This document shows positions 2,718-61,456 of a stretch of DNA of 61,509 nt, piece after piece. Position 1 is the stretch's first letter. Each line of letters starts with the position of its first letter. The notes under the pieces are model-generated. The model had not been told where the DNA came from. It saw nothing but the letters and a program-made list of their open reading frames with translations, and made no database searches. Source of the DNA: Raillietiella orientalis (taxonomy: Eukaryota); assembly GCA_036172245.1 (NCBI GenBank), contig JAYWIR010000150.1, positions 1 to 61,509 on the forward strand. The letters are read 5' to 3'. Position numbers and translations under genes: made by a program.

Positions 2718-2923
2718 TCCGTTACCGGCCCTCCGAATTTTTTTTTTTTTTTTTTTTTGTGGTTTGTTTTTCTTATTTATTTTGTTTTTGTTTTCTCTCC
2801 ATCCCCCTCCACTGCCGAGGAAAGCCACACCGGGCTGCGTCCCGGTGTCCCGGCAGTTCCGGTATTGCGTGGCCGTCAGTGGGGCCTTGTACCACGTTCT
2901 GTATTGACCGTCATAATGTTTTT

Positions 2924-2952
2924 AATAAACGTCCCGGCGTATCCGGGTGGCA
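2924..2952 (+). other. Conserved LINE 3'-terminal signal (AATAAA plus GC hairpin); representative of 9 occurrences
   Basis: aataaacgtCCCGGcgtatCCGGGtggca; also 5455-5484(-), 28868-28897(+), 31457-31486(-), 37296-37325(+), 39827-39855(-), 52121-52151(-), 56783-56812(-), 61427-61456(+). Confidence 0.9.
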
Positions 2953-3840
2953 TCGCCGAAACCTGGAGGAAGTTGATGGAGGGGAAACTGGTCACAGAAC
3001 TCTCGGACTGAGCGTTTTATTTTGTCCCAGTCAGCGAGAGTCTGCAGTTCGCAACTACGCAGGAATGCGCGCAGATCTTCGCGCGCTCCTGCGAGTCGCA
3101 ACCAGTCCCCCAGCAGGCGCCACGCTTCGGATGGTGGACCTCTGTCGCGCGGATGAATGTTGATCACTAGTCGAGGGTGATCGGACAGCTCCGACGCAAT
3201 TGCTCCTCGAGTCCCCACCCGCGTACACAAGTGGTTATCGAGGAACACGTGGTCGATTCTGCTTCTCGCCACGGCTTCATCGGCCAACAAGTTGCGTGTG
3301 TGCATAGCCGCACACAACTCGTTGACCAATTGTGCTTGTATGTCGGGCGCTTCCGACAGCAGGCGGACGTTGAAGTCTCCCGCTATCAGATGCGGCTGCC
3401 GCACGCCTGCTTCGGCCAGCCAGTCTCGCCGCAGGGTTTCGAAGAACGCAGTGCGTTCTGCTAGCCTGTGACTGGTGCAGGGCGCGTACAGGTTCGTGAC
3501 TACGAGGTCGAATCGATTCGGACCACTTAAGGACAAGTTGTCCGACTCGACATTCCTCGTCGAACTGTGCACTGCGCACCGCATTGGCGACGGCCGGCTT
3601 CAGCAGGAAGGCCACTCCGCGGTAGTGGTCTCCTACACCACGCCAAAGTAGCCTAGCCCCTGTGAGCCTCTCGTTTTCCTGAACGTCCTCTGCTCTCAGG
3701 GCATGCACCTCTTGAAGAAGTGCCAGATCGAAAGGTCGCAGGGTGTCGGCCACGCTACGCCTCTTGCATTCGCTACGCAGCCCGTTGACATTCCAACAGG
3801 CTATACGCAGCTGCCGGCAAGAGGCGATTCCACGCATCAT
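2951..3840 (-). pseudogene. LINE ORF2 APE endonuclease fragment, starting at the ORF2 ATG
   Basis: MRGIASCRQLRIACWNVNG, LLQE, YAP, GDFN, IDHVF and SDH motifs; one frameshift; cut at PPGFGD by the 3' end of element 1-2952. Confidence 0.9.
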
Positions 3841-5454
3841 GCTGCGAGACTTCAACCTGGTGCTCCTGCAAGAGACGCACGTTCTCAGAGCAGGAGATTT
3901 CCAGGAAATCGAAAGCATCGCAGGAGGGCGGCTACTGTGGAGGAACGGAAACGACCGCTCCTGCGGAGTGGCGTTTATGCTTAAGCCAGCCGTCGACAAC
4001 GCACTGCGCAGCGTCAGGTTCGACGAGGACAGTCGAGTTGGGCAGCTTGCGTTAAAGAGGTCCGACTCGATCGATTTCGTGGTGACGAACCTGTACGCTC
4101 CGGTGAGCAGCCACAGGGCCGAGGAACGCACTGCGTTCTTCGAATCCCTGCGGCGAGACTGGTTGGCTGAAGCAAGCGTACGGCGGGCGCACCTCATCGC
4201 GAGCGACTTCAATCTCCTCCTGCTTGCAGGTGCGCCCAGCAGTCGAGCACAACTGGTCAACGAGTTGTGCGCAGCAATGAATGCGCGCAACTTGTTGGCC
4301 GGTGATGCCGGGAGAGATCGGAACATCGATCACATGTTCCTCGACAACCAATTGTGCACGAAAGTGGGAACTCGAGGAACGCTCCCGGCAGAGCTGTCCG
4401 ACCATCCACGGCTCGTGCTCGAGTTGCATCCGCGGAATAAGGGCCCTCCCTTGAAAACGTAGCGCCTGCCAGGGGACTGGTTGCGCCTCGCAGAGCGGCG
4501 GAACCTCTACGCGCCTTCCTGCGAGGATTCCATCTTGAGACGCTCGCGGACTGTGACGAAATGAAGTGCTCAGTCCGCGAGTTTTGCGACCAGTTTCCCC
4601 TGGAACGTCTTCCGCCTAGCTTCGGCGATGGGGTCAGGAACGAGCGGGCCTACCTTCAGGACCGCTGGTATTCCAGGCGTTTCGACATCCGTCGCTTGGC
4701 GGAATTCAAAGCTGAGGCGGAGAGGCAGGCCTGGCAGTCAGGCTCGGCCTGCTTGCTGGACCATCAGAGCCAAGAACGCTCCAGCCTAGCTCAGGTAAGC
4801 CGCATCGTGCGGAAGTTTTATTCCTCCTTGGACGCGGCACTAATACCGGAGCGCCATTTCGCACAGCGCCTGCTGCAGGATAGCCTCCCCGCGCTCAAGG
4901 AGGAGGATCGTTTCTGGTTCGGAGAACCGTTCACGATGGTGGAGGTCGTCTCCGCCATCAACAGGCTGAAGAACAGGAAGGCACCAGGGGAGGACAGGCT
5001 GCCCGCGGAGTTTTACAAACACTTCTCGCCAGAGCTGGCCCCCCTGGTGCTCAGGTTAAGTGCGCTGATCCGCGAACACGGCGAAGTTCCCGCCTCGTTC
5101 CGGTCAGCAAAAGTACGTCTCCTACCGAAGACAGGAGACTTACGCAACATTGGCAACTGGCGTCCCATCACAGTAGTGAATGCGGACGCAAAGTTGTATG
5201 CCAAGTTGTGGGCTGAGCGTTTGAGGCGGGTGGCCGCTTCCGTGGTGAGTCCCGAGCAGACCTATGCTGTTCCCGGACGAACCATGGAGGCCAACCTGCT
5301 TCTCGCCAGAACATGGTGGCAGTTGCGACAACGCGTTGCCCATGAAGGTCAAGGGAGTCTTGTGCTCCCCTCTGACCAGGAACACCGGATGGAGGGTGGG
5401 AGGGACTCGGCGGAAGCCTTTGCAGACGCGGTCGACTTGCGCAAATCATTCGAT
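3841..5454 (+). pseudogene. LINE ORF2 fragment (APE to RT motif DLRKSFD); left part of a host element
   Basis: LLQETH, SDFN, SDH, KAPGED, WRPITVVN; stop at 4460-4462 and a frameshift; ends at the insertion of 5455-11099. Confidence 0.9.
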
Positions 5455-5679
5455 TTTCACCCGGATTTCTCCGGGTCGTTTATTAAAAAAATAAACTTTG
5501 TAAACAAATTATTAATGGCAGTTCCAATGCTCCAGCCAGAAGCTAAGAACCACAACGCCTGCCAATTCACCGGTTTCTAGACCGGTACGGTTCACCAAGG
5601 CAGCAGGGAAGAGGGGAAAAACAAAAAAACTAAACAAAAAAAAAAAAAAACACAAAGGGTGGGAGGGAACGGGAAGGGA

Positions 5680-8600
5680 TCACTGTTGCTGCTGGGGCCG
5701 CATCATCCCCCTCAGGATGCTGGCAAGCTCTTGTTTGTTGTAAACATCCAGGTGGGGCCATCGCGACGCCCTCCTCAGGAATTCGGAGGCGCACTGCATG
5801 GCTTCCTGATCGCTAGGTCCTCCCGTCGCCGTGACCAGTCGGCGACGATGCCACGAAGGCAGCACAAGGCTGCTATCGAGGACGCTGGCTGCAGGGCGTC
5901 GGCAACGAAGAAGGATTTTAGTGCGTATCTGGGGTTGCAGCAAGGGATACCGATGGCCGCGGCAAAGCGGAACCAAAGGGGCGGAAGGGCATCACAATCC
6001 ACTAGGAGGTGGGGGAAGGATTCCTTTTCCCCGCACCTTACACAATTAGGATCCACCGCTCCCCAGGTACAGTGGTGTCGACGGGCGTTGCAGGGCAGTC
6101 CCCAGTGCTGCAACAGGAATGCCGATTGTTGCCATTTTAGGGGGAGGATGGAAGTGTTCATAAGAATCGCGGGCCACTTCAGATGTTCAATCGGAACATC
6201 CAGCAGCGCTCCCCAGCGCAGAATTCTATTAGGAGGCGTACTCGGTGTCGCAACATCAGTTAGCTGGCCCGTCTTCCACTCTCTCTGCTTCTTCTCCTTC
6301 CCGGAGATTTTTATTGTAACCTCTCACTTCTCCGCAACATCGCTGTGCTGTTGTTCCACTTGGGAGTCCAGCGCAGCAGCGAGGGGGGTTCTTCCTGACC
6401 ACGCTCTCTTCTTAGGATACTCCACGATCTCACAAAGCGTGCACCTTCTGTAACACCCAAACAGGAACCTTCGTTCCTGATGGGAGGGTTGCATGCCTAA
6501 CTGGTCCCACGTACGAACGGTTTCCTGCAACCAGGCACTACCGTTCACGGGGAGACAGGTGATCCATCCTTGATGTTTCCTTGCCAGCGCAGCCCCCCTC
6601 GTAGCTGAAGGCCACATCGGTTGATGCGGCTTTGATAGAGTGCAAGAAACGACGTAAGTCCCTTCTTGTCGGTGGCTTGCTGAAGGAGGAGACGTGCAGG
6701 GACGCACCAACAGGTGCACCACAACTCCGGCACAAGTGCCAAAATCCGGAACTGGAGCTGCAGCTCCAGCCGCTCCAATGTCAGGAGGCCGAGACCACCG
6801 TCCCGACGCGGAGCGCACAAGTTCTTCAGGCGGACTCGGGGCGTCACGTTGCCCCAAAGGGCGATACGGAGAAGGTCCTTCGTCCGCTTTTTGATCCTCT
6901 CTGTGGGGGGACAAACAAACAGCAGGGAACGGAGTAGAGGAGCCGCGAACATGTTCCAAACCGCGGCCCTTTCAGGCAGGAAAAACCTGCCGCCTCGGAA
7001 CGGGCCGATAGCCGTCTCTACTTTTTGAAAGCAGGCGGACCACGCTTCCGCTGGGGAGTAGTCCCCCAACGGCACACGAAGGTACTCGAAGTACCTCACC
7101 GTGGGGATCCCCAAATGGACCCAGTCCTGCTGCCCTGCCCACGCCGCACCAATTGGCATCACGGACGACTTCGCCCTGTTCACTGTAAGCCCTGTTCCTC
7201 GATTCAGCAGGTCGAAGAACTTCTCGACCGCCGAAGCCGGGGTGAACATAGGGAGCAGTAGCAGGTTGTGGTCCGCATATGCTGAAACCGCAGGCGTTCC
7301 GGCGCACTCATATGGCAGGTTAGCCAGTGTTTCCCTGTACGCTTTCAGTACCAACTCAAAGTAGGTACTGAAGAGCAAGGGGCTCAGGCTGTCTCCTTGC
7401 CGGATACCACTTCGCACCGGCACGCCGTAAACAGTATGCCCGCTGAAAGTAACATTGATTAGCGCATCGTGCCAGCTAGAGCGCAGATAGGCCAATAATG
7501 AGGCCGGGAAGCCCAAGCGTTTTAAAAGCTTCCGCAGTAGATTCTGGTCGACGCTCTCGAATGCTTTACGCAAGTCGACAGCGACCGCAAGTGCTGCCTC
7601 CCCCATCCGACCATGCGTCGCATGACTGACGGACTCACCGGAATTCCCGGTGCGCATCAAGCCCCTTTCGTGTTGGGGCTCTAGCCAGGTGGAAGCGTGG
7701 AACAGGTTCGCCTCCATGCTTCGCCCTGGAACAGCATACGTCTGTTCCGAGATGACGAAGGCGTTTGCAACCCGTCCCAAACGCTCAGCTTAAACCTTAT
7801 CTATCAACTTGGCATCCGCATTCACTATTGTGATGGGACTCCAGTACTTCATGCTCCTCAGATCTCCTCACTTAGGGAGAAGCCGCAACTTTGCCGAACG
7901 AAACGAGGCGGGAACGTCACCTGTCTCGCGTATCAGCAAGGTGAGTTGATGTACCAGGGGGGTTAGCTCAGCCATCAAAGTTTGATAAATCTCCGCGGAC
8001 AGGCCGTCCTCCCCTGGAGCCTTTCGCCTCTTGAGCTTTCCGATGGCCGAGATGATCCCGCCCATCCTGAAAGACTCGTCGAGGAACTTTTTCTCCTGCT
8101 TCCCAAACGCAGGAGCGCCTTCCGGAAGCAGGACTCGTGAGAAATCCCGCTCGGAAGGCGTTCTTGCGTACAGGGAGGAGTAAAACCGCCGCAGCAGACC
8201 GCGGATTTGAGCGCGTGCCGAACGCTCCTGGCCCTGATCGTCCAGCAAGCTGGCCGATCCTGACTGTCAGGCTTGCCTCTCGGCTCCCGCTGTGTATTCC
8301 GTCAGCCTGCGGATGTCGGGGGACCTGGCGTAGCGACGAGCCTGCAGATAGGCTCTTTTGTTACGTACCCCGTCCTTAAATCTCGCAGGTAGGCGGTGCA
8401 GAGGGAACTGGTCGCAGAACTCCTGGATCGACCGTTTAAAGCGGTCCCAATCCTGAAGTGTATGCATCTTAAAGCTCCGTATAAACAAGCGGAGATGTTC
8501 CGTCGCGTCCAGGAGCTTCAGCCAGTCCCCTGGCAAACGCCACGCTGACGAGGGGGGGCCCCTGTCGCGCGGATGGATTTCAATCACGATTGGTCGATGG

Positions 8601-9261
8601 TCGGACAACTCGCACGGCAACTTGCAGCGCCTGCTTACACGAGTGCACAGGTGATCTTCAAGGAACACGTGATCGATGTTGTCCTCCATTCCTGGTACAC
8701 TGGCCAACAAATTACAAGTGTGCACCGCCGCGCACACCTCGTTGACCAGGGCACGTTCGTGATTCGGCCCTTCCGATTTCAGACGAACGTCAAAATCGCC
8801 TGCAACCGGATGGGCATTCCGCACGCCTGCCTTGGTCAACCAGTCGCGATGGAAGGCAAGGAAAAATACTTTCCTGGCCCTCCTGTTCGTCAGGGCCGCT
8901 CCGCTCAGGCCTAAACGTTCGAAACGATCAGGTCGATCGAGTCGGACCAGCTGAGAGTCAGCTGACCGACACGACCGTGATCGTCGAACCAAACTCCACG
9001 TGCGGCGACCTCGATGGCGGGCCGAAGCAGGTTGGCGACAGCACAACTTCTCGATGTTCCACACCGATACCACAGCCGCCCTCCGTTGATGCGTTCGATC
9101 TCCTGGGCTTGTTCTGCAGAGATCACATGGATCTCCTGCAGCAGAACAAGGTCGAACGATCCTAGAATGGCGGCCATGTCTCGTCTCCTGCCGGCGTCTG
9201 TCATGCAGTTCACGTTCCAAATGGCGATGCGCAGACGACGGCGGTAGGAGATTCCCGGCAT
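5680..9261 (-). pseudogene. LINE ORF2 (APE-RT-CCHC), multiply disrupted
   Basis: MPGISYRRRLRIAIWNVN, GDFD, SDH, KAPGEDG, DLRKAFE, QGDSLSP, AYADH (decayed YADD), CVRCGEKESFPHLLVDC. Confidence 0.9.
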
Positions 9262-11005
9262 TACTGCCGGGAAGATGACGGTGTGGGATAACGCGCCACT
9301 TCCGAGGCGGGTGAGATGACCATTAGGGTTTCAGCCTCCTCAGGCACCTTGGGTACCTTACCGTCTTCAACCCCCTCCATCTCCTCCGTGTCTGTGCGTG
9401 GTGGTCTCTCGGGTGACGATTCCTGGCATTCTCCCACGCTCATGGCACCCTCGCAGTCGGAAGTCATCTCCACGCCTTCGACCTGGAGAGGGGCTTTCCG
9501 GGGTATGCTGGACTTCCTTCCACCCTTCCGGCGGGGTGCCGCGGAGATGGAAACTTGGTTTCCGGCCTTCGCTTCGGGGTCGAAAGTTACCGAATCCTCG
9601 GTGGAGGCCGGACGCCTCACTGCCTTTTTGCCAGCCTTGGAGGGGTCTGGCTGCAACGATGCAGCCAGCTCCTCCGCCGCACGCTCGAAGGCGGCGTCAT
9701 CGCTGACGGTCTCGAAGGCGGCGTCATCGATGACGGTCTCGATGACGGACGCTTCCGCCGGTTCGCTCCCCACGCTGTTGACATTTTCAACAGTAAGTTG
9801 CTGGTCGGTAGCAGCGATTTCTACCTTGCGGCGTTCGGCGGGGACGCGTTCCACGACGACGCTGCATTCTTTTAAATTCTCGCTAACCTGCTGTTTTTTA
9901 TTTTGGTAGGCGAGCTTTTTTTCGATTCGTCGTTCTTTCTTCGACTTTTTTTTCTTTTTCTCTGTGACTTCTTGCCATTCCAACACCTGACCGCTTTTGT
10001 TAATCTTTTCGGCATTCGTTGTCGGGATGTTGGCTGAGGCCTGGACCACGGGAGTGGGTGGCACAGCTTGAGCGGCAGCCTTCGCCGCCAGTTTTTTGTG
10101 CAGCAGCCGCGCGCGTTTTTTTAGGTTCCTAGAGGAAATCACGCGCACAGCGGATTGTGAACACACTTCCTTCGTGTGGCCCATTGTCCCGCATACCAAG
10201 CACTGTACGTTGGGGCACCTCCTTTTAAGGTGTCCCGACGTGTTGCAGAAGTTACAGTATTTGGGCTTCCAAACGTACCAGAGGTCGACGCTTTCTCCGC
10301 CGACCACCAGTTTGTGGGGAAGGGTAGAGCTCTGCCGATCGGTTACACTGGCAGCCGTGAGGCCGCACTGAACTCTTGTATTGTCCTCGAAAGGACTAGG
10401 CTTGCTCCATACTGCATGGACCGTGCCTTCTTTTCATAACGCGGCGCGTAACTGTTCTTTCCGCATCCCCGCGGTAACTCCTAAATGGTGGACCACCATA
10501 CTGTGGTCCGCCGTAACGGGAAGGAGCCTGCGTGTCCCCATTACCACGGGGGTTTTAAGCAGACGTTGGGACAGGTCTGCATGTTTGCAGATCACCTCTA
10601 CGTACTGCCCCCCGCTAGGAATGATCATAGCGCAGAGCTCCTCTTCTTTAACATCGAGAGCGTGCATTTCCTTCAATATGGCGCGCGCACTCTCAGCAGA
10701 ATGCAAATTTCCTACCTTGTAGAATAGTGATGGGTTATACCCCTCTTCGACATAGGCAGATAATTCCGTCGCGGCTGCAGGCGATGGCGCCAATACGACG
10801 GCGCTCCACGCCCGCGCTGCAGCGGGGACCGGTTTGTGGGGGCGGACGCCCCCACCTCCTTCGCCACTGAAGGCGACGTTGCCGCCGCCCCCTGGCACTC
10901 CACCTTCTCTGGAGGCAACGTTGCCGCCGCCATGTGGCACTCCATTTCTTCAGGAGGCGACGTTAGAACCGCCCCCTGACACGTACTGGTGGTCGCGTCA
11001 GGCAT
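9261..11005 (-). pseudogene. LINE ORF1 (gag-like, two CCHC knuckles), frameshifted and with a stop
   Basis: CNFCNTSGHLKRRC and CLVCGTMGHTKEVC; DDAAFERAAEELAA motif; split over ORFs 10712-11029, 10434-10940 and 9261-10307. Confidence 0.88.
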
Positions 11006-11099
11006 TGCTGCTTGATCGACCACCACCACACACGAAGCCTACACCCAGGGACGGTTCCCGGCACGAGGAGCACCGAGGAAACACGTCCGCTCTAGCCGA

Positions 11100-11885
11100 C
11101 GTAAAGCTTTCGACTTCGTCGACCAGGAGCTCCTTCTGGAGCTCCTGGAACGCATGGTTTTCCCGGCCGTGCTCCAGTCCCACCTGCGCTCCTGCTCGCG
11201 CAACGCGTCAATTAATATTGGTTTCAGCGGCCGGCACGTGTACGGCTTGCCAGTCCGCCGCGGTATCCGGCAGGGTGACATCCTGAGCCCCTTGCTCTTC
11301 AGCATCTACTTCGAGATGGTGCTGAGGGCATACAGGGTAACTCTGGCAACCCTGCCGAGCTCGTGTCCCAGCACGCCTGCCGTGTCAGCCTATGCAGACG
11401 ATCTTCTGCTGCTGCTTCCCGGGTCCACCCCGGCGAGTGCACTTGAGGACTTCTTCGAGTTGCTGCGCCGCGGGATGGGCCTGGAGGTGAACAGGGCGAA
11501 GTCGTCCATGGTGTTCGTCGGTTCGGCGTGGGCTGGACGGTCGGATTGGATCCGCTTGAGGATATCCACGGGCAGGTGCTTCAAATACCTCGGCGTACCG
11601 TTGGGGGACTTCTGCGCAGCAGAAGCCTGGTCCGACCGTCTCCAAAAGGCAAGTTCTACTTGCAGGAACTGGCCGCGTTGTGGAACGCGTTTGCGGCTCC
11701 CCTCCTTCGCCCCTTACTTTTTGTTTGCCCCGCCCCTTATTTAATGCGGAAACGAGCAGCGGGCCTCCTGAGGACAGTCCTTTGGGGCAAAGGGAGGTCC
11801 CGTGTGAGGCTCAAAGACTTGTGCGCTCCACGTAAGGACGGTGGACTTGGCGTACTTACGCTGGAGCGCATGGAACTACAACTTA
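11100..11885 (+). pseudogene. RT fragment from RKAFD onward; right flank of the 5455-11099 insertion
   Basis: RKAFDFVDQ, RQGDILSP, AYADD, KYLGVP, CAPRKDGGLG; internal deletion near 11650. Confidence 0.88.
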
Positions 11886-13172
11886 GATCGAGGCAGCACA
11901 GGGCTGAAATCGAGGCCGCTATGGGCAGGACCCCGCGATGCGGAGTTCCAGGCATATGTGTCATCAGGATACATGCCAGCACTTCGTTATAAGTTCAGTG
12001 GGCCACTTAACGGGAGAATCGGTCGTGAGCTCAATGATGAGCTCGTCCGGATAGGCGTTCGCGAGGAGGAACTCCTTGCCATAATGCCTGCTGGCAGGAT
12101 GGAATATACGAAGATTCGGTGCAAGAACGCAGCACTTGTGCAGCGCCTTCTCCGTACGCCGTTGACCATCAATAACAAGGAAGTCCTACATACCGCGATG
12201 GACGACTCTTTTGTCGTTCAATTGTGCGACATCGAACCGGAAATCTCCGACCGCGATGTCGTAAGTGTGCTGGCGAAGTTCGCCACCGTGCACCCTCTGT
12301 GGAGGAGGCCAAATCCTCTAAAGGATTTCCCCTCTGTCCACATTGGACAAGCCTCCGCGCGGATCACCGTCGCGAACAGGCGTGTTGTGCCTGAGCAGTT
12401 GCAGGTGAACGGCACGGTCGTTCACCTGTGGTTCATCAGCCAGACTCGCGCGTGCGAGCAGTGCGGCAAGGAGGGGCACCGAATTAAAGAGTGCCCCTCT
12501 CCAAGATGCCGCTATTGCAAAGATTCCGGGCACGAAATCAAAAAGTGCCCGGTACTTGCAAGAAAAAGAGCCGCAGCGGAAATTCGTCGGGTTCAAGAGA
12601 CCACTGCACGAAAAGCCGCAGCGGCAAATAAAAAACGTCGTCCGCAAAAACTCGCAAAAAACCACGAGCGATCCGCGGATGAAAAGAAAGCATCCCCGCC
12701 CGCAACGCCCCGAAAGGGGAAAGTCACGGCGGGGAAGCCAATTCAAAAGGGGCGCGAGGGTTTGACGCGTGCCGTGCCTTCCCTCTCTGGCGAACTCGCA
12801 GGCACTTTTCCGAGCCTGGAACCAGGGAATCTCCGTAACACCCTGGAGGGAAAGGTAGGAAAACAGGAAGATCGCAACAGTGCGAAGACTTCTTGCCCCG
12901 TTCCGTTGTCCCTTCCGAGTTCCGGACAGCCCCACTGCAGCGCAGGCCCCACTGCAAAGGCTACGAAAGCCGTAAAAAGCAGCGTCGCGACGAGCAATAG
13001 CACGCTGCATGCAGTCGCCCCATCGCCGACTCGGCAGGTTTCCCCAAGTCCCACAAGGGGTGGGGTAAGTTTATTTTTCTATAAAAATACAAAATTTACA
13101 TTCGCACTCTCATTCACTCAATACAATTATTTTGCACTTGGGGGTCCTTGGGTTTCACTAGAGTTCTGCTTT

Positions 13173-16691: not shown

Positions 16692-16704
16692 AAAAGGGGA
16701 AGAC

Positions 16705-22329: not shown

Positions 22330-22342
22330 AAAAGGGGAAGAC

Positions 22343-34068: not shown

Positions 34069-34084
34069 TATCAAGTGAAATCAA

Positions 34085-45222: not shown

Positions 45223-45301
45223 CGAGTGCGGACGTGTTTTTCTTCGCTCTCGTCTCCGTGCTTTCATCCGCTTCATCTTGGCGTCGTACATTTTGACGAC
45301 G

Positions 45302-50200: not shown

Positions 50201-50818
50201 ATCCTTGGCGCCTGGAAGACGAGTGAGTTGGCGGACGCCGCCACACCTCGTGTTACTGCAAAGGAACTCCTCCGGTGGGCAGAAGAACTTGCTGTCACCC
50301 CCGAAGAACTTGTAGTCCCTCCACAGTGTATGGACAGTTCGCTGCTCCCCCTTGCTTGGATACAAGCCGTGCTGCTTTTCGTTCACTGGGGTTTTCAGTG
50401 CAACGAGCGTTGGCATCGTGACTCCGGGGGACTTGCGCCTGCGAACTGCGTTCGGTGCGGATCGACGGAGTCGATTCCGCACATACTTCTGGACTGCGGT
50501 GTCCTACAAGAACTGTGGCGTAGGCTGGCAACAGCACTAATGCATCCCGTGGACACCGCAAGAGACTTGCTGCGACGATTCTTCGCGCCGAGCGGGCTAT
50601 CACTAAGCGCAAGGATTGCAACCATCGGTTGCATACGCGCGATAGTTTCCGTCCGCCAGGCGTTGGTAATCAACGGACAGCACCAAGAGGTAATCAGGAA
50701 AGCATCCTTCTACATGGTAGCATCCGCTAGATGGCCTCATTTGACAGAGGAGACAAAAAGGAATCTCGCCGCAATACAATGCCGGTTTACACACCCTCAG
50801 CAGCGGCCAACCCGGTGA
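47224..50818 (+). pseudogene. LINE ORF2 with frameshifts and stops (48633, 49161, 49368)
   Basis: WNVNG, LQE, GDFN, SDH, KAPGEDG, DLHKAFD, YADD, CVRCGSTESIPHILLDC. Confidence 0.92.
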
Positions 50819-51059
50819 TCATTGCCCTACCCTCCATAAACTATGTTTGTATTTTCTTTTTACACCCGCGTCCCCATAGGCTCCGGAACATTTTAGGTGC
50901 TCATCGTATAAATCCCCGTGAGTACGGAGCCTAACCAAAAACCCGTTACCCTTCCCTCCAGTTTTTGATTTTTGTTTGTTTCCCCTCATTCCTCCCGCGC
51001 TGCGAGCGATTTGTTTACCAGGCCTTCGTGCCGGTAATTTTTCTATGTTCTCTGTCGTT

Positions 51060-52120
51060 CTGAATCACCCGCACCAATGGATGTGGGCCAACAGGTACGA
51101 ACAACACCCCCTCCGTACGGGCAGCCGCAGACGTCGGCACGAAAGAAGGATGAAGAGTTGGTGGGCAAGACGCTAACCCCGTCCAGGGACCCGCCCCAAA
51201 AGGTGGCAAGAGCACCACCGCCAGGTTCCCAGGAATAACACCTGGAATCGCCTGTCGCCGTCGGAATTGCGGGGCCAGTTGGAATGTTATCGGGCTGCAC
51301 GACGATGGAAGCAGACGAGATAGAGCCGCCAACTTGCGAGATTTTGACCTGGTGCTTCTGCAGGAGATCCACGTCATCACCGCAAAAGGCGCACATGAGA
51401 TCGAAACGATCGCGAAAGTGCGGTTGTACTGGCGATGCGGCGCCCGCAAACCTTGTGGGGTCGCGTTCTTCCTAAAGCCAGCCATTAACGCTGCCGTGAA
51501 GAGCGTGCGCTTTGGGGACGACGGACGGATCGGCCAACTGATTCTCAGATGGTCCGATTCGATCGCCCTCATCGTCACCAATGTGTACGCTCCTAGCGGT
51601 AAACAGGGATACCACCAGCGCAACGCGTTACTGGAAACCTTGAAGCGCGATTGGCTGGTGGAAGCGGACGTGCGAAAGGCGCATCTGATAACAGAGCATT
51701 TCAACGTCCGTCTGCTCTCAGATCAGCCCGGAGCATAGGGTAACGCGATCAACGAGTTGTGCGCCGCCAGGCACCCACGCAACTTGTTGACAGATATAAG
51801 CGGGATGGTCAGCAGCGTGGACCACGTCTTTTTCGACGTAGACCTGTGCACACGGGTCGGAAAACGAGGGACACTTGCATCGACGCAGTCGAAGAATTCC
51901 CGGTTATTATTCGAGATGCGCCCGCGCGACAAGAAACCGTTATCCAGGGATTGGCGTATGCCAGGGGACAGGACGCGCCTTTCAGGAGCGAAAGAACATT
52001 TTAGCGAATTCCTGCGAGGCGTCACCCTCCAGAGTCTCACGGATTGGGACCTATTTAAGGACTCGGTCCGGCAGTTCTGCGAACAGTCCCCTCTGCGACG
52101 TCTGCCCCGGGGATTCGGCG
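51060..52120 (+). pseudogene. ORF1 C-terminus and APE fragment ending at LPRGFG
   Basis: PAPMDVGQQ, TAACACCTGG junction at 51236, LLQEIH, VYAP, VDHVF; left boundary approximate. Confidence 0.85.
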
Positions 52121-54484
52121 TTACCACCCAGGTACGCCCGGGGCGTCTATTTATAAAAAACTCTACAATCGCGGTACCAGGCTTCGCTCACGGCCTTATG
52201 CACGGGACCCACCGAGACGCCGGGACGCAGCCCGGCGTGGCACTCCCCGGCAGCGAAAGGGGATAGGGAAAAACAAAAAAAACAAAAAACGCAAACAAAC
52301 AAATGTGTTTGGGGGGGCAGGGAAGGGATCACTGTTCGCTGAGAGGAGGGCCCATCCGTTGAAGGAAGCCCTCGAGATCCATCCGTATATTCCCCAGTTG
52401 GGGCCATCCAGTAGCTCTCCGCAAGAAGCGTTGGGCATATGGGATGACATCCCTCGCGTGTTGACCCACTTTTTCCTTGTTGGTGTCGCTCCATGCCGCC
52501 ACGATACCTCGGACGCAGCACAAGGCTGCAAGGGCTGCGGCTGGATGCAGGGCGTCCTTCACGAAGAGGGGCCGAAGAACGTCTTTAAGGGAACTGGCCG
52601 CAGGTAGACCGAGAATCGTCCCAAACTGTTGCCAAAGGGAACGCATGGCAGCACAGTCCACAATAAGGTAAGAGAGCGATTCCTAATCTCCGCACCTGAC
52701 ACACACGAAATCCACAACTCCTCTTGTCCAGTGAGAGCGGCGTGCGTTGCTTGGTAAACCCCAATGCAACAACAGCAACGCCGACTCTTTCCACTTAACA
52801 GGCAGGATCCTGGATTCCTGAAGAAGCGGGGGCCACTTCAGCACATCCATAGTGATAACCAGCTGCTCGCACCGTCTTCTTAGTCCTCGCGGCTGGACGC
52901 TCGGTGTCGTGGCGTCGGCCTGTTCTCCTGTTGTCCAGCCTCTGATCAACTTCTCGCGTCCCTCGATGCAGCAGGGGACTTGCCACCTTGGCGTTCGGCT
53001 GCTGTAAAGTGCCCTCTTCAGGAAGGGCAGCGCCGTAGCTAGGCAGGTCGTCTCCGCCCACGTGCATCTTGCTGGACTCTCCAGGAGATTCCGCAGCGTG
53101 CAGCGGGCGAAGGGGCTACATCGGAGACGATGCCACGTTCCGTAGCTCCTCTGGTTAACCGCTGCCCACGTTCCGATGTTCTCCTCCAGCCAGGCGGAAG
53201 AGTTGGCGGGGCAGCAAACAATCCAGCTGTTCTCCTTGGCCAATGTTGCCAGGTGCCCGAGCAGTAGGCCACATCTTCGCATCTTCCGGCCACGGCTCAG
53301 AAGAAAAGAGGCGAGTCCATCGCACCGGGACTCACCACTGTCCAGGAGGCGAGCCGGAGGGCACCAAGGGGTGCTCCACATCTTCGCTGCGATGGCGACG
53401 GTTCGCCACCGCAACTGCTTCTCCACGAGCTCCAGCGTCAGGAGGCCAAGACCGCCGTCCCGACGCGGAGCGCACAAGTCCTTCAGAGGGACTCAGGGCC
53501 TCCCCTTGCCCCAAAGGGCGATACGGAGGAGGTCCTTTGTCCTCTTCTTCGATTCCACGGTGGGGGGGCAAACAAACAGCAAGGGGCGGAGGATGGGGGC
53601 CGCGAAGGCGTTCCAAACCGCGGCCCGTTCCGGCAAGTGAAACTTGCCTTCCAGGAACGGGCCGATCGCCGTCTCGACTTTTTGGAGGCAGCTGGACCAC
53701 GCTTCCGCAGGGGAGTAGTCCCCCAACGGCACACCAAGCTACTTGAAGCACCTCGCCGTGGGGATCCCCAGACGGACCCAGTCCTGCTGCAATGCCCACG
53801 CCGCACCTATTGGCACAACCGACGACTTCGCCCTGTTAACCTGCAGTCCGGTCCCGCGGCTGAGCTGATCGAAGAAGTCTCCGACCGCCTTTGCCGGGGT
53901 GGACATTGGTAACAAGAGCAGAAGATCGTCGGCGTACGCTGCTACGGCGGGCGTGCCGGGGCACGAGCTCGGCAACGGGGCCAGAGTCACCCTGTACGAT
54001 CTCAGCACAAACTCAAAGTAGGTGCTGAAGTGCAGAAAGCTGAGACTATCTTCCTGCCTTATGTCCCGCCGCAACTGCACGCAATGCACCTTGTGACCGC
54101 TGAAAGAGACGGTATTTATTGCATTCCGCAAGCAAGAGCACAGGTAGGAAATCAGGGAGGGTGGGAAGCCCATGCGACTTAGGAGCTCCAAGAGGAGGTC
54201 CTGGTCTACATATTCGAACGCCTTGTGGAGGTCGACTGCCAGCGCTAGGGCCCCCTTTCTTGCCCGTGGTTTCCTTGCCAGCCCGGCTGGCGGCCCCAAT
54301 GTGGGGTTGCCGACTTTCCCTATCCCTTTCTTCTCTCTTCTCTGCAGGTGCACCCATGTGCTTGCGAAGAAGAGGTTGGCATCCATACTTCGACCGGGAA
54401 CAGCATAAGTCTGCTCCTGGCTAATTACGGATTCTGCCACCTGCCTTAGACGCGAAGCCCATAGCCCTGCTATTAACTTGGCGT
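52121..54484 (-). mobile_element. 3' part of a lineage-A LINE (from AKLIAGLW to 3' end), decayed
   Basis: DLHKAFE, AYADD, CVRCGD; variant terminal motif (AATAGA plus hairpin) at 52121-52151. Confidence 0.9.
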
Positions 54485-54497
54485 GCGGACGTGTTTT
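54485..54497 (+). promoter_or_regulatory. Conserved 5'-terminal motif (GA)GCGGACGTGT, candidate internal promoter element; representative of 6 occurrences
   Basis: Also 11081-11092(-), 30774-30785(-), ~35192-35203(-, degenerate), ~42790-42801(+), ~45226-45237(+); always within ~10 nt of an element 5' junction. Confidence 0.6.
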
Positions 54498-54572
54498 TGT
54501 AGCGCTCCTCCGTGCCTGGTGTAAAGCGGTTGATTTCGATTGTGTTTGTGTGTGAAGCATCTGCGGTGTCCA

Positions 54573-56593
54573 ATGGCAGAAATGCCTGAGGACACCGCGA
54601 CTGATATAGGAGGGGGAGAGGCTTGCTCCTCTCCCCAACCCACAAAGGTGGGGGCAACTGCCCCCACGGAGGCGACGGCAGCCGCACCCCTGGAAAAGGG
54701 GGCAACCGCCGCCTCGGAAGTGAGGGCAAAGGCACCCTTGAAAAAGGGAACAAAAGCCCCGCTGGAACAGGGTGCAACCGCCTTCTTGAAAAAGGGGACA
54801 ACCGCAACCCTGCAAAAGGGCGCAACCGCCTCCTTGAAAAAGGGGGCACCTGCACCCTCGAAAGCGTCTTCGGCATCGCCGAAGACCTGGAGTTCACTGG
54901 CTGCAGCCCCATCTCCTGCAGCCCTCTCCGAGCAGAAAGCCTACCTGGAACAGGGATGCAAGCCGTCCTTGATATACAAGGTAGGCAATCTGTTTATCGG
55001 GAATACCGCTTGCAACTTCGAAAGGGAGTTGCAGCGGTTGAATGTAAAAGAGGAAGTCCAGGAAGGTCTTTCCGTGTTGAGTGGTGGTCAACGGGTGGAG
55101 GTGACTTGCAGAAATGCAAGCCTTGCTAGACACCTCCTAAATACGCCAATCACACTAGAAGGACGAAAGGTTTTCCCATTAACGGAGGATCGCTCCGTGG
55201 TGACGCACCTCACGGGAGTCACCCTCCGCATGTCAAAAGCCGACGTGCAAAGGGAACTCGGAAAATATGGAACGGTTCACGCGCTATGGAAAAAGCCCAA
55301 CGTCTTCCAGAGTTACGGAAGGCTGTTTAGTGGCATGGCTGTTGCGCGTGTAACCGTCCACGAAAACGGTGGGCTACCCCACAAACTAGACGTCGGCAAC
55401 AAGACAGTCGACGTCTGGTACGTGGGCAAGCCCAAGTACTGTGGACACTGTGATGCCACAGGGCATCTGAAAAAGCGGTGCCCCCACATCCAGTGTTTCC
55501 ACTGTGGAGAGAAGGGCCACCTCCGCAAAGTGTGCCCGAAACGCGAACCCCCGGCTCCCGCTGCCTTGAAAAAGGCCAAAGGGAAACGCGCGGGGGCTAC
55601 GGAAAAGTTTGCGAAGGCACCCGCGAGACAGAACCCACAGCCGGAGCCCGAGCCCGTGCAGCAAACGTTGGTCGTGGAATCTACCAACGACGCTGAAAAG
55701 AGCGAAGGCTGGCAGAAGGCGAAGCAGAAAGCGAAGAAAACAAAGAAAACCGAAGGGTCGACAGCGGAACCCGCGACGTCTCCTTTAAATAGGAGACAAC
55801 GCCGCGCGTACATCCGCGAATGTTCGGTCGCTTTGGAGCGTGTGGGGGTACCCGGAACCGCCACCGGGAGAGATATCCCCCGCGTAGACGCCGACGATAA
55901 CGCGATCACGGAAGGCGAACCCTCTGTGCAAACAGAGGTTGAACCGCGCGACGCGCTCGCCTCGATCGACGAGGCCGCCTTCCAGCAGGCGGCGGAAGAG
56001 CTCGCGGCCGAACTCGCCGACCGTGCGAACGGCGCGCAAAAGAGCTTGCGAAGGCCGGCCGCGACCAGGGCACCTCCGACAGGTGACCACGACCCGGATG
56101 CCGGAAGTGCGTCCTCCTCCACGGAGGCGCCTCCGAAGAAGACTGGACGGGAGTCCAAGAATTCCAAGAGGCGCATCCTGACGAGGAGCGAGGCGGACGC
56201 ACCGGCAGCCGAGGGGGAAGCCGGCAGCGTGGGAACGGAGGGAGGAATTTTCCCACCCTCCGCCACCGAGCAGCCGACCACCCCATGGAGGAGGGGGAGC
56301 AGGTAGGGCATTGCCTCCACCTTCCACCGGTGGAGCCTGCAGAAAAGATGGTCATGGAAGAGGGGGAGAAGACAGCTGAGAACCGCTCCCCTCTGCCGTC
56401 CAACGCAGCCGAGGAATCGGCCCCCATGGAAGAGGGGAAGCAGGTGCGTGAAGCATGCTCCCTTCAACCGTTGCGGTCCGCCGAGGAATCGCCCCCCATG
56501 GAGGTGGGAGAACCGCTGGGCGGTGCCCCCATGCCTCCATCCGTCCCACCCGACCAGGTGGCGGGAGCCCAATTGCCACTTTCCTGAAAATAA
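54573..56593 (+). pseudogene. LINE ORF1 with two CCHC knuckles; frameshift and stop near the C-terminus
   Basis: CGHCDATGHLKKRC, CFHCGEKGHLRKVC; DEAAFQQAAEELAA; frame change near 56280. Confidence 0.87.
54684..54851 (+). repeat. Degenerate 24-bp coding tandem repeat (8 aa, ~APLEKGAT) in the ORF1 N-terminus
   Basis: APLEKGAT, APLKKGTK, APLEQGAT, AFLKKGTT, ATLQKGAT, ASLKKGAP. Confidence 0.85.
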
Positions 56594-59500
56594 CACCTGG
56601 GCTCGCCTGTCGCCGTCGATTACGCGTGGCCTGCTGGAACGTGAACGGGCTGCGCGACGACGGCAACAGACGGGAAACGGCCGCCACCCTGCGTGACTTC
56701 GACCTGGCACTCCTGCAGGAGATCCACGTGATCACCGCGGAGAACGCCCAGGAGATCGAAAGGATCGCAGGGGGACGGTTGATTGTCACCCGGGTGCGCC
56801 GGGGCGTTTATTATAAACTATCCGGGAACAGGGTTCCCGGACAAAGGGGAAAACAAGAGACCAAAGGGGTGGGATCCCCGACACGCAGGTCGGCATGCCG
56901 AAAGTCCGGAACGGGAGGGAAGGGACCACAAACACACTACTATATAAAAAAATAAAAGAAAAATGTGGAGGGCAGGGGACAGGGGTCTTTGGTAAATCCG
57001 TTCCTTCCTTTTAAAACCGGCGATGGATGCCGGCGATCTCTCTCCTTACGCCCTGCGGCAGATGGGCCCATTGGGCAGCCGACGACATGTTTGCGCTGGC
57101 TAATCCGGTGGGCTGACGAAGGATGGCCAGCTTCTCCAACTCTCGGTGGGCCTTGTCGATGGCGCGGGTGCAACACACGGTTGCAACGACAGCACCCAAT
57201 GACAGGCCGCCTGGTGTGAAGAAGCGGCGCATCAACTCCCTCGCGGTGTCCCCCTGGTGCAGGAGAGCTGAGGCCAGCCTCCGCCAGAGTCCTAGAAGGG
57301 CACTGCAGTCCAGGAGCAGGTGCGGGAGCGTTTCCACTTCCCCGCACCGCTTACAGTTTGGGGAGACGACTCCCCCGGAAACAAGGTTCGTGCGCTGGTT
57401 GGAGTGAAAACCCCAATGCACCAGCATAATCACATCCTGCTTCCACGGAAGGGGGAACACAGAAGTGTTCAGACACGAGGGAGGAACCACAAGTTCTTCA
57501 AGGGGCACACTCAAGTGTTCGCTCCACCGAAGGAGTCCCTTCGGAACGTGGCGGGGCGTGGCGGCGTCCGCCAGCTCGCAAGTCTTCCAGCCGCCAATAG
57601 GTCGCGTTGTTCCTGCGATGGTGCAGGCGACCTCCCATCTCGCCGGTTCGCAACTGTCATCTCTTGCCCTGAGGGCTGACAGCGCGTCTTCGAGGGGGAT
57701 GACGGGCAGGCGGGTCCACTTCTCCTGGCTGTTGCACACCTCATCCACCGTGCAGTACGGGGAGAGGTGAGCGCAACGGAGTTCCAGGAGGGAAACATCC
57801 TGGTGCTTTGCCCAGCCATGCAACGGTTCCTGCCGCCAGGCTTCAAAGTTCGTTGGGCTACGGGGACGGTTGATGTGGCAATGCGGCTCCCGATACACCT
57901 GCGGCGTCGCGTTTTTCATGAAACCGGCGGTCGACGCTGCCGTAAAGGGCGTGCGCTTCGACGAAGCCGGTCGTGTCGGCCAGCTGATTCTCAGGTGGTC
58001 CGACACGATTGACCTCGTCGTAGCAAACGTATACGCCCCGAGCGGTTATAACAGGTAACGGGAACGCCCGGCGTTCCTGGAAAGCCTGGAGCACGAATGG
58101 CTGGTGGAAACGAACGTGCGCGTGGCTCACCTGATAGCGGGAGACTTTAATCTCCGCCTGCTATCAGGTGAGCCACACGCACAAGAACGGACGGCTAACG
58201 AGTTGTGCGCCGCCATGCGCACGCGGAACTTGTTAGGGGATCTTTCGGAAATGGTCAGCAGCATCGATCACGTCTTCCTAGATGTCCACCGCTGCTCCCG
58301 GGTCGGCAAACGGGGGAAAGTTGCGTCGGAACTGTCTGACCATTACAGATTAATATTCGAAATGTGCCCGCGCGAAAAGGGACTTCCATCCAGGGCGTGG
58401 CGGTTGCCTGGGGACTGGACGCGCCTCTCAGAAGCGAAAGAACACCTTCGCAAATCCCTGAGAGGCGTCACCCTCCGCAATCTCGATGATTGGGACCTTT
58501 TTAAGGCCTCGGTCCGCGAGTTTTGCGAGGAGTTCCCCTTGCACCTTCTGCCCCGGGGATTTGAGAAGGGGATCCGCAACGATCGAGCGTACTTGTATGC
58601 CCGTCGTTACGCGAGGACCCCCCAATGTCCGTCGCCTGGCAGAGTACCGAGCCGGGGCCGAACGTCAAGCCTGGCAATCCGGATCGGCCAGCTTCCTGGA
58701 CGACTAGGGAAGGGAGCACTCGGCTCCGGCTAGAATACGGCACCTCGTGCGGCGTTATTATTCCCTTCTTTCCGGCAGGGCACCCCTGGTCCAAGAAGTT
58801 CCTCGGCGCTTGCTTTTGAACGGGGCCCCGGCAATAGGGGAGGAGGAGAAGGAAAGCCTCGACGAGCCTTTTACCACCGGCGAAATTATCGCCGGTATCA
58901 AAAGGCTCAAGAGGCGGAAAGCACCAGGGGAGGACGGCCTGCCTGCGGAGTTTTTTTAATGCTTCGCGGCAGAGTTAGCATCCCTGGTGCTTGAGTTGAC
59001 AAGGCTGATCCGAGATGAAGGCGATGTACCCGCCTGGTTTCGGTCAGCCAGAGTGAGGCTCCTTCCGAAAGGAGGAGACCTCAGGAAACTCAGGAACTGG
59101 CGTCCGATCACAATTGTGAACACGGACGCCAAGTTGATCGCCGGACTGTGGGCTTCGCGTCTTGGGCAGGTGGCCAATTTCATAATTAGCCCGGAGCAGA
59201 ATTACGCTGTTCCCGGGCGAAGTATGGAGGCCAACCTCCTCTTCGCAAGCACATGGTTTCATGTTCAGTGTAGTAAAGAAAAGGAAGAGGGAAGGATTGG
59301 CAGCCCCGCTTTGGGGGCGTCAGCCGGGCAGGGACAGGACTTCCAGGTGGGGAAGGGAGCCTTAGCGATCGCAGTCGATCTGCATAAAGCGTTTGACTGC
59401 GTGGAGCAGGATCTCCTGCTGGAGCTCCTGGGACGCATGGGCTTCCCTCCTTCCCTACTGACCCACCTGCGCTCTTGCTGACGCAGCGCGCTGATCAATA

Positions 59501-61272
59501 TCTCTTTCAGAGGTCAAATGGCGTACGGCGTGCCGGTACGGAGGGGCATACAGCAGGGCCACAGCCTCAGTCCCGTGCTCTTTAGCACCTACTTTAAGTT
59601 GGTGCTTAGAGCGTATAGGGTGACCTTGGCCCCCTTGCCGAGCTCGTGCCCCGGCACGCCCGCCGTAGCAGCGTACGCCGACGATCTTCTCCTCTTGTTG
59701 CCGATGTCCACCCCGGCAAAGGCAGTCGAGGATTTCTTCGACCTGCTTAACCGCGAAAGCGGACGGCAGGTTAACAAGGCGAAGTCGTCGGTGGTGCCAG
59801 TCGGTGCGACGTGGGATGGGCAGCAGGACTGGATCCGCTTGGGGATCCCCTCGGCGAGGTGCTTGAAGTATCTCGGTGTGCCGTTTGGAGATTACTTTCC
59901 TTCGGATGCATGGTCCGGCTGCCTCCAAAAAGTGGAAAAGGCGATCGGCCCGTTCTTGGAAGACAAGTTCCTGCTTTCGGAACGAACCGCAATGTGGAAC
60001 TCCTTTGCGGCTCCCATCTTCCGCCCCCTGCTTTTTGTTTGCCCCGTCCCCAGAGACATGAAGAAAAGGACGAAGGTCCTCCTGAGGATTGCCTTTTGGG
60101 GAAGAGGGAGGCCACGAGTCCAGTGAAAGCACTTGTGTGCTCCACGTCGGGATGGCGGTCTGGGCCTCTTGACGGTGGAGAGAGTAGAAATCCAGCTGCG
60201 ATGGCACACCCTGGCCATCGCAGCGAAGTTATGGAGCACCCCATGGTGCGTTCCGGCCCGACATTTTGCCAGCCGTGTATCCGGAACGGAGGGTCTCGCG
60301 TCTCATCTTCTGTGCCGCGGCTCGAAGATCAAGAGATGCGCACTCCTCCTGGGACGCATGGCAACCGTGGCAAAGGAAAACGGCTGGATAGAATGCAGCC
60401 CCGCCAACTCCTCCGCATGGCTGGAGGAGACAGCTGGCACGTGGGCAAAGATAAACCAGAAGAACGGAGAGATGTGGAACTGCCTGCGACGCAACGCCTA
60501 TTCCCGCTGCACTCTGCGGAAGATACTCCAGTGTCCCGCGAAAAGCACGTGGGCAGAGACAACCCCCCTAGTTACGGTGATGCCCTTTCTAAGGAGGGCG
60601 CTCTCCAGCAGCCGCAAGCCTAGGTGGCAAGTCTCCTGCCGCATCGCAGGCAAGGAGAAGTTGATCAGCGGCTGGTCCACGGGTGAACTGGCGGACGTTA
60701 GTACCCCTAGTGTACAGCCGAGAGGACTGCAGAGATGGGGCGTGCTACTCGGCATCCAGCCGGATGACCTGAAGTGGCCTCCGGTATTAATTGGATCTAG
60801 GATCCTCCCCCTGAAGTGGAAGGAGTCGGCGCTTCTGTTGTTGCATTGGGGTCTACCCTGCAACGCACGCCGCCACCACTGGACCAGGGGTCGAGTAGAT
60901 CCTACCTGCATCAAATGTGGGGAACGGGAAACTTTCCCCCACCTCCTTGTTGATAGTGCTGCCCTCCGACCTCTGTGGGAATCTCTTCGTGCCTCCCTAC
61001 GGATCCAGGAGGGCAGCCAGCCCAGAGACGTTTTTCGGCTTCTGTTCGTGCATGATGCCCTGGGTCAAGCCGCTACCCTGGCTGCACTTTGCTGCGTACG
61101 CGGGATTGTGACGTGCTGGAGCAACGTCAGAAGACCGAGCCACTACAGGGATGCCGTCGTACATGCAGTCCGCTACCTGCGGATTGTGACCAGATGGCCC
61201 CACCTGGGAATTATACGGAAGGACATCGAGGGCATCCTGCGAAGGATGGACCCTCCTCCCAGTGATCAGTAA
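56593..61272 (+). pseudogene. LINE ORF2, interrupted by insertion 56784-57861 and several stops/frameshifts
   Basis: CWNVNG, LQEIH, GDFN, SDH, KAPGEDG, DLHKAFD, YADD, KYLG, CIKCGERETFPHLL. Confidence 0.92.
56784..57861 (-). mobile_element. 5'-truncated (~1.08 kb) LINE insertion with a perfect 13-bp TSD
   Basis: ggggacggttgat at 56771-56783 and 57862-57874; encodes the ORF2 C-terminus (CKRCGEVETLPHLLLDC); terminal motif 56783-56812. Confidence 0.93.
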
Positions 61273-61456
61273 TCCCTTCCCAACCCTCCCAAATCTGTTT
61301 GTTTTTTATGTTTTATTTTTCTTTTTGTTTTTTCTCCCACCCCCTTCCGCTACCGAGGAGAGTCACGCCTGTCTGCATTGAGTTTGCCGTAGTGGGGCAT
61401 CGTACCACGAATCAAAGAGAAGTTTTAATAAACGCCCCGGCGTGACCGGGTGGCAA

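Follow-up and report, generated by a model that had tools for sequence, protein, structure and literature searches.

Arrays of long interspersed nuclear elements (LINEs) that insert into their own kind, hotspots for such nesting and bias in its orientation are all already known. The L1-type elements Zepp and ZeppL form clusters of nested copies in green algae (Coccomyxa, Chlorella, Chlamydomonas), as outlined in the passages cited here (PMC8226300, PMC3446292), and the Zepp clusters are described there as GC-rich, with one cluster per chromosome in Coccomyxa (PMC3446292). The cited part of the report on Cryptococcus presents Cnl1 as a LINE that inserts preferentially within itself and makes nested arrays (10.1101/2022.06.10.495668). 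For human nested transposons, the cited sections state that 82% of the insertion types (654/799) were unevenly placed along the target and that L1 had entered L1 21,559 times in sense and 9,899 times in antisense orientation, which the authors credited to intrinsic sequence features (Levy, Schwartz and Ast, 2010; PMC2836564). Here we describe a stretch of 61,509 nt from Raillietiella orientalis (assembly GCA_036172245.1, contig JAYWIR010000150.1, positions 1 to 61,509; the whole stretch is called the window below), in which LINEs have inserted into other LINEs nearly always antisense, with insertion points that recur between independent events. The antisense direction is what sets this locus apart from the systems above.

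With Zepp and ZeppL the window has in common an L1-type element and a LINE-only cluster of nested copies. As the cited passages describe them, however, Zepp arrays are tandem and consist mostly of 3' ends, whereas the nesting in the window is antisense, involves many full-length copies and uses sites in the first half of open reading frame 2 (ORF2). The Cnl1 arrays are likewise presented in the cited part as tandem and as lying near telomeres, while the nesting described here is antisense, and the window showed no telomere repeat. The tandem arrangement of both is found only in one pair of elements (A2-A1, see below), against nine antisense and one or two sense events. Hotspots along the target and an orientation bias of many insertion types are shared with human nested transposons as far as the cited sections cover them, but the human L1-in-L1 bias is towards sense, about 2:1, and that of the window towards antisense, 9:1-2. 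Also different from human nesting is that the elements have neither a poly(A) tail nor an A-rich target, and that a simple strand-asymmetric nick motif was sought and not found. All flanks in the window are LINE sequence, as are both 3' flanks visible in one independent sequencing run (X1; the only run with related sequence, word share 0.09), so that this statement covers one locus and one run. The original prediction had seen in the array a candidate for an undescribed system. With self-targeting nested arrays (Zepp/ZeppL, Cnl1) and human orientation bias and hotspots in print, that description has to be given up in favour of the narrower point that the direction differs. A literature search returned no report of antisense, coding-sequence-directed self-targeting in a LINE without a poly(A) tail, which is no proof of absence.

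Site-specific LINEs with an apurinic-like endonuclease (APE), such as Tx1L in Tx1D, R1, TRAS/SART and Keno/Kibi/Koshi, insert in a single orientation into a repeated target and can yield tandem copies parted by target sequence. The A2-A1 pair resembles such tandem copies. Unlike in those elements, the target here would be the elements' own relatives, there are several sites, and many copies of the sites are unoccupied.

Placement by blastn, tblastn and tblastx shows the whole window to be LINE sequence only, of the L1 type (endonuclease and reverse transcriptase). Its G+C content is 53-62% in 2-kb windows, and an Rfam scan of the window gave no RNA genes, hence none as candidate for the real target. 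The longest frame, P0001 (1170 aa, 18982-22494, minus strand; ORF2 of A2), carries an Exo_endo_phos domain (E 2.9e-17) and then RVT_1 (E 7e-32), which is the APE-type architecture of an N-terminal apurinic-like endonuclease followed by a reverse transcriptase. Among solved proteins human L1 ORF2p is its best relative (E 3.9e-53), and R2 proteins score far lower; judged from the protein sequence, the clade can be resolved here only to an L1-type ORF2, and the Tx1 clade invoked in the original prediction is a candidate placement. A CCHC knuckle was found in two of the four ORF1-region frames scanned, above the Pfam cut-off in a family B frame (54534-56306) and just under it in the family A ORF1 frame (22343-24247). 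Relatives of the family A proteins in the databases are at most 25% identical among 35 matches, and a protein search found one JGI protein 57% identical to a family B reverse transcriptase. No relatives were found in the viral and prokaryote contigs searched.

The elements fall into two deep families, A and B, with A making up the tandem pair and B the remaining window. Between the families protein identity is about 25-30% and there is no relationship at the nucleotide level; within B several subfamilies share 65-80% nucleotide identity. The B 3' end consists of AATAAACG, a CCCGG-loop-CCGGG hairpin, TG and 3-4 further bases finishing in A, so that the terminus of the element and its RNA is a short hairpin with 1-3 A. 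The pattern AATAAACG.CCCGG.{5,6}CCGGGTG has eight exact matches in the window against none expected, and one degenerate end lies at 52121. The A 3' end has AATAAAC, a hairpin differing from that of B and then AAA. Thus every 3' end is a hairpin plus 1-3 A and not the poly(A) tail of the L1 superfamily. Folding energies of the 3' hairpins were not exceptional for stretches so short. Complete B 5' ends start CGGACGTG, at times with about 10 extra bases ahead. Eight metagenome contigs (L001-L008) also carry the exact 3' motif, but we read this as a chance bacterial resemblance, with no LINE similarity by tblastx; in seven of the eight the flanks are nearly identical and the hairpin is followed by a run of T.

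The full-length B copy E4 (5644 nt) served as ruler, and "ref" denotes a coordinate on it. Placed in this way the window resolves into 23 parts, listed below in order; H is a host element interrupted more than once, a prime marks a duplicated or continued part, and the insertion points s1a to s4 are given further on.

E1, 1..2952, plus strand: 3' part of a B LINE (ref 2718-5644) whose 3' end is intact; s2 is about 4 nt away from position 1.
E2, 2953..3843, minus strand: host fragment, ref 2727 down to about 1810, broken at s2 by E1 after host-sense ...TTCGGCGA, and invaded on its other side (junction at 3839-3843) by the 5'-truncated E3.
E3a, 3839..5455, plus strand: left half of host E3, ref 1932-3554.
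E4, 5456..11099, minus strand: full-length B, 5644 nt, antisense within E3.
E3b, 11100..11893, plus strand: right half of host E3, ref 3530-4354, cut at about 11893.
E6a, 11894..13038, plus strand: 5' part (ORF1) of E6, about 200 nt short at the 5' end compared with E12 and on the same strand as E3b.
A1, 13039..18676, minus strand: family A LINE, antisense within ORF1 of E6.
A2, 18677..24313, minus strand: family A LINE forming a tandem with A1; its ORF2 is open for 1170 codons.
E6b, 24314..28897, plus strand: rest of E6, its intact 3' end adjoining E7 antisense at s1a (host-sense ...GGGAGAT).
E7, 28898..30782, minus strand: 5' part of a B element, ref 2002 down to 1, its full 5' end adjoining E8 antisense.
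E8, 30783..31456, plus strand: piece of host H, ref about 2630-3299, between the 5' end of E7 and the 3' end of E9.
E9, 31457..33535, minus strand: inverted duplicate of E9' at 98.3% identity that has lost 1.5 kb internally.
E14, 33536..34071, plus strand: inverted duplicate of part of E14', cut at about 34071.
E10, 34074..35210, minus strand: 91% copy of the first 1126 nt of E4.
E4', E3a', E2' and E1', 35211..42778: inverted duplicate of 1-7570.
E11, 42781..45228, plus strand: 5' part of a B element, ref 1 to about 2300, its full 5' end adjoining E1' antisense at s2.
E12, 45229..51062, plus strand: B element with full 5' end, sense within E11, truncated at its 3' end.
E15, 51191..52120, plus strand: host fragment, ref about 1790-2726, broken at s2 (host-sense ...TTCGGCG) by E13.
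E13, 52121..54485, minus strand: 3' part of host H, ref 5644 down to 3287; the 3' end at 52121 is intact but degenerate.
E16, 54486..56783, plus strand: 5' part (ref 1-2029) of a full-length B element, antisense within H.
E14', 56784..57861, minus strand: 5'-truncated B, antisense within E16/E9' at s1b.
E9', 57862..61456, plus strand: 3' part (ref 2019-5644) of the E16/E9' element, with intact 3' end.
E8', 61457..61509, minus strand: continuation of host H and inverted duplicate of 31404-31456.

Nesting reaches a depth of three levels or more. About 4 nt separate the first base of the window from the s2 junction of E1, and its last 53 nt, which follow a LINE 3' end, belong to a duplicated stretch; the window may be a whole contig broken at repeat boundaries.

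The nestings are real target-primed insertions, because they carry target duplications and because two of the sites are empty in X1. The duplication around E14' is perfect (56771-56783 and 57862-57874, 13/13), and those of E4 (5440-5455 and 11100-11115) and of E16/E9' (54470-54485 and 61457-61472) are alike at 12 of 16 positions each. Measured lengths are thus 13, 16 and 16 nt, with about 12 nt probable at s2, and the combination of variable target duplications with 5'-truncated copies (E14', E3, E6) is that of target-primed reverse transcription. The host halves join up in ref coordinates across the inserts, E3a ending at 3554 and E3b resuming at 3530 around E4, E16 ending at 2029 and E9' resuming at 2019 around E14', and E13 and E8' meeting at 3287 and 3299 around E16/E9'. 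One X1 contig lacks E14' (empty-site joint 56774->57876) and another runs through the E12 site of E11 (45221->58190). The X1 joints that appeared to link opposite strands are mostly cross-mappings of uninterrupted copies between differently oriented window copies, and not inversions.

As to orientation, the original prediction held that all seven independent intact 3' ends (2952, 5455, 13039, 28897, 31457/61456, 52121, 56784) adjoin LINE coding sequence on the opposite strand. These seven are indeed intact and face opposite-strand ORF2 or ORF1, but there is an eighth distinct intact 3' end, that of A2 at 18677, which adjoins the 5' end of A1 on the same strand, giving 7/8. The probability of 0.5^7 quoted for the seven was correct as arithmetic and left out this tandem end. 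The 5' junctions named there exist with slight shifts, at 3839-3843, 11099/11100, ~30782, 35210/1, ~42781, 54485/6 and 57861/2; the one near 24300 lies at 24313/4, or at 24297/8 if the 16-mer there is a target duplication. The full 5' end placed at 45223 was correctly called sense, and lies at 45228/9; besides it a second same-strand junction occurs at ~11893-11915, where a slightly 5'-truncated E6 stands beside E3b. That junction is ambiguous and conflicts with the antisense 3' junction of E6; a same-strand 5' neighbour together with an antisense 3' junction therefore indicates rearrangement.

After duplicates had been collapsed, nine antisense events remained: E1 into E2, E3 into E2, E4 into E3, E6 into E7, E7 into H (E8), E16/E9' into H (E13 and E8'), E14' into E16/E9', H (E13) into E15, and A into E6. 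The 5' junction of E11 on E1' was merged with the entry of H into E15, as a single insertion, its ends parted by a later inversion, may account for both 52121 and 42781; the E11/E1' overlap, GGGATTCG(A/G)CG, is consistent with a target duplication of about 12 nt containing one mismatch. The sense events are E12 into E11 and the ambiguous E6 beside E3b. The tally is thus 9/10 antisense (p 0.011), or 9/11 with the ambiguous junction (p 0.033; one-sided binomial), for an orientation hypothesis that was formed after the data had been seen.

Several observations concern the surroundings of E12. It is short of about the last 65-100 nt at its 3' end, whereas X1 has an intact end of E12's family. About 130 nt between E12 and E15 (51062-51191) are assigned to no element and are likely the breakpoint of a later deletion or inversion. 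A 3755-nt X1 contig, 97% identical to 45194-48950, starts ~35 nt upstream of the E12 5' end and carries the sense junction with an E11-type host; either X1 has this locus in a diverged state, or several copies of the junction exist.

New in this analysis is the recurrence of insertion points. The breaks were located as follows:

s1a, host E7: host-sense break after ...CCCGGGAGAT.
s1b, host E16: host-sense break after ...GACGGTTGAT, 27 nt downstream of s1a.
s2, hosts E2 and E15: host-sense breaks after ...GGTTTCGGCGA (E2) and ...GGATTCGGCG (E15).
s3, host E8: host-sense break after ...AAAGCTGATAG.
s4, host E3a: host-sense break after ...ATCATTCGAT(T).

At s2 the hosts E2 and E15 were broken by different inserts (E1 at 2952, E13 at 52121) in one alignment column to within 1 nt, at host-sense TTCGGCG(A). 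The 3' part E1 itself begins at GGGATTCGACGA, that is at s2, and the 5' junction of E11 on E1' fits s2 as well. The entries of E6 into E7 and of E14' into E16 lie 27 nt apart. GAT occurs within 0-2 nt before the break in three to five of the 6 breaks, and the B-into-B antisense sites all (8/8) fall at ref ~1810-3554 of 5644, i.e., in the first half of ORF2. Among the X1 junctions listed, which lie elsewhere or come from another genome, at least two are antisense 3' junctions in or near used sites. In two contigs the loose end behind 61452 is flanked by the antisense of the same APE region, ~5-6 nt from s1a, and at the joint 58484->56788 a reverse-complemented B 3' end meets a host at ref ~2650, 21 nt beyond the E7 5' junction on E8 and an estimated 5-10 nt from the expected E7 3' junction. 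In simulations of clustering the eight window events gave p 0.003 over the whole element and 0.024 within ref 1800-3600, and the ten events including X1 gave 9e-5 and 5e-3, respectively; we regard these statistics as suggestive.

The independence of the two s2 events was examined through codon positions. The inserts E1 and E13 are 77.5% identical and differ by.217/.142/.314 at the three positions, and the hosts E2 and E15, 68.7% identical, differ by.31/.21/.42 in their own frame, while the control pair E10 and E4 is flat (.086/.075/.094). The third-position excess shows that both pairs diverged under purifying selection as separate, active lineages and not as one copied junction, so that the two events involve four different elements. 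A single duplicated s2 junction, which would give flat values as in E10 and E4, was rejected on these grounds, and so was 3' transduction as the origin of the repeated junction, since the host pieces, which it would leave flat, bear the trace of selection on codon positions in their own frame.

The two family A copies lie head-to-tail on the minus strand and are 95.6% identical. A 16-mer, TC(G/A)C(C/T)GACT(C/A)GGCAGG, stands before, between and after them (13023-13038, 18661-18676, 24298-24313), in exactly three places, as would be expected of a second copy that used the regenerated target again. Between the copies there are 245 substitutions and 1 gap; transitions account for only about half of the changes, the differences in ORF1 and ORF2 fall 60/64/105 on the codon positions, and 43 codon changes are synonymous against 78 non-synonymous. 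This pattern of change mildly favours two insertions into a regenerated 16-nt target over tandem duplication in place, and CpG effects could contribute to it. Family A may have been active recently, because ORF2 of A2 is open over 1170 codons. An empty site for family A was sought in E12 and could not be confirmed, as ORF1 is too diverged there. Both A copies also have an internal repeat of ~80-90 nt, roughly 80% alike, in their 5' part (ORF1 region; 18219-18411 and 23857-24038).

The nest has also been reshaped by segmental duplication. Positions 1-7570 are the reverse complement of 35211-42778 at 96.7% identity; 31404-33445 and 33440-34068 are reverse complements of 59468-61509 and 57329-57957 (98%), and 34085-35206 copies 9974-11099 at 91% identity. 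Copies of other parts thus make up the whole centre of the window (31404-42778), a mosaic of the inverted right end, a copy of 9974-11099 (the 5' end of E4) and the inverted left end. Between the arms of the 7.6 kb inverted duplication identity is 84-89% near 35211, reaches 100% across from 5100-5700 and stands at 94% where the window begins, with 3-4 gaps in 7.5 kb and divergence nearly all in substitutions. The 3' ends at 39827 and 37325, inverted duplicates of those at 2952 and 5455, had not been counted in the original prediction. At 35210/1 the copy of the E4 5' end is joined to ref 3530, the same nucleotide as at the E4/E3b junction and also a boundary of the inverted duplication, and the 35210 junction is probably a copy of the one at 11099 and thus non-independent. 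It could have arisen by fold-back duplication, in which the copying strand switched from E3b to its inverted homologue E4, followed by gene conversion; a second insertion is disfavoured. The boundary of the inverted duplication (7570; 35210/35211) lies exactly at ref 3530, where E4 becomes the inverted homologue of its host E3b. Twin priming (5' inversion) was considered for the head-to-head junction at 3840 and for 35210 and rejected in view of overlapping coordinate ranges and partners only ~74% identical.

Of the readings considered, we favour a choice of target by the elements' own machinery, which would nick the sense strand of a resident LINE at preferred sites and use that strand to prime reverse transcription; the probability we attach to it is about 0.48, slightly short of even. 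New LINE copies would repeatedly enter older ones by target-primed reverse transcription, with the nick falling on the coding (sense) strand of the resident at a small number of favoured positions within the first half of ORF2, frequently directly behind GAT. The resident sense strand would then prime the copying of an incoming RNA whose terminus is made up of AATAAAC(G), a short hairpin and 1-3 A. With sense-strand priming the newcomer is necessarily antisense, so that orientation would follow from the site. Later inverted and tandem segmental duplications, with at least one deletion or inversion, would have copied and scrambled the nest. That the bias arose at insertion instead of by later loss is what the evidence suggests to us, and the feature recognised would likewise have to be deduced from the sites. 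The suggestion in the original prediction of orientation-specific targeting of relatives holds up to this extent: the insertions are real, nearly all are antisense, and sites recur in independent host and insert pairs, which favours it over pure chance.

A number of observations weigh against this reading. The B element E12 was inserted in sense orientation, and E6 combines an antisense 3' junction with a same-strand 5' neighbour, showing that the nest is rearranged and that some junctions may be secondary. Family A, unrelated in nucleotides, is likewise antisense, which hints at a cause broader than the specificity of one endonuclease. Two target duplications match at only 12/16. The clustering statistics are post hoc, and for the window only the test within ref 1800-3600 gives just p 0.024. 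The material consists of one locus and a few junctions of one low-share run (0.09 of words), beyond which that run has a further 246 loose ends and 10 joints. Among the elements a strand-asymmetric short nick motif (GAT and its 4-mers) was sought, and the counts were symmetric (GAT 688 vs 702). TTCGRCGA was rejected as a sufficient target, having 14 copies in the window of which the s2 copies in E3a and E8 and the copies away from s2 are unoccupied, and no extended motif common to the insertion sites emerged.

Chance, by which a small sample and a local history of duplication, inversion and gene conversion would have inflated the apparent independence of the events, we consider unlikely. Large inverted and tandem duplications are present, the way identity changes along the inverted duplication points to gene conversion, the 35210 junction was copied from 11099, and 52121 and 42781 may be one event; moreover, the 9/11 tally reaches only p 0.033 and the window-only clustering within ref 1800-3600 only p 0.024. 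Yet duplicates were collapsed ahead of counting, the codon-position tests put four distinct lineages in the two s2 events, and X1 adds two more antisense junctions in or near used sites. It is slightly less likely that a filter acted after random insertion, with sense nestings lost through selection or through recombination or slippage between direct repeats, or with antisense ones kept as a source of double-stranded RNA for silencing. Recombination is plainly active at the locus, and the sole clear sense insertion, E12, lacks its 3' end and has a rearranged 3' neighbourhood. An orientation filter, however, leaves the nucleotide-level sharing of sites by independent events unexplained; subfamilies that are 65-80% identical are a poor substrate for homologous deletion, and the youngest events are antisense too (E14' with its perfect 13-nt duplication, A2 with its open ORF2).

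Strand-biased access, with the sense strand exposed by transcription or R-loops, or at inverted-repeat boundaries made by a first antisense insertion, seems to us as improbable as the filter. It would account for the antisense position of both unrelated families, A and B, and it fits the failure to find a strand-asymmetric short motif. In addition, E1, inserted at s2 of E2, is itself broken at its own s2, where inverted homology with the host switches partner, and the boundary of the inverted duplication falls exactly at E4 ref 3530, the start of inverted homology with E3b. The same geometry fails to predict the s1 cluster, and E7 and E16/E9' are broken at ref 2002 and 2029 and not at their own insertion coordinates; nucleotide-exact recurrence across hosts fits sequence recognition better. 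Slightly more doubtful still is a guided, strand-specific attack on relatives, by sense RNA pairing with the antisense strand or by the structure of an inverted-repeat boundary, in which each insertion would prepare the next at the same coordinate and a palindrome-rich LINE island would grow, possibly as a centromere-like or silencing domain. An assembly artefact of misjoined repeats or fold-back reads is highly improbable. The centre of the window recurs inverted at both of its ends, and a junction lies ~4 nt from the window start, as such an artefact might leave behind, but the copies differ by substitutions and hardly any gaps, unlike read error, target duplications and intact element ends stand at the junctions, and families that match, empty sites and junctions of a similar kind occur in X1.

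In several protists and fungi, islands made up solely of LINEs serve as centromeres or chromosome ends, and little is understood of their assembly. If the favoured reading, target choice by the elements' own machinery, is true, the antisense self-targeting described here would amount to a safe-haven strategy, since only other transposons are disrupted, and competitors and older copies would be inactivated by it. Inverted repeats would arise automatically, driving fold-back duplications such as those seen in this window and possibly giving double-stranded RNA. These LINEs would then also offer a natural system for how an L1-type endonuclease gains selectivity for both site and strand.

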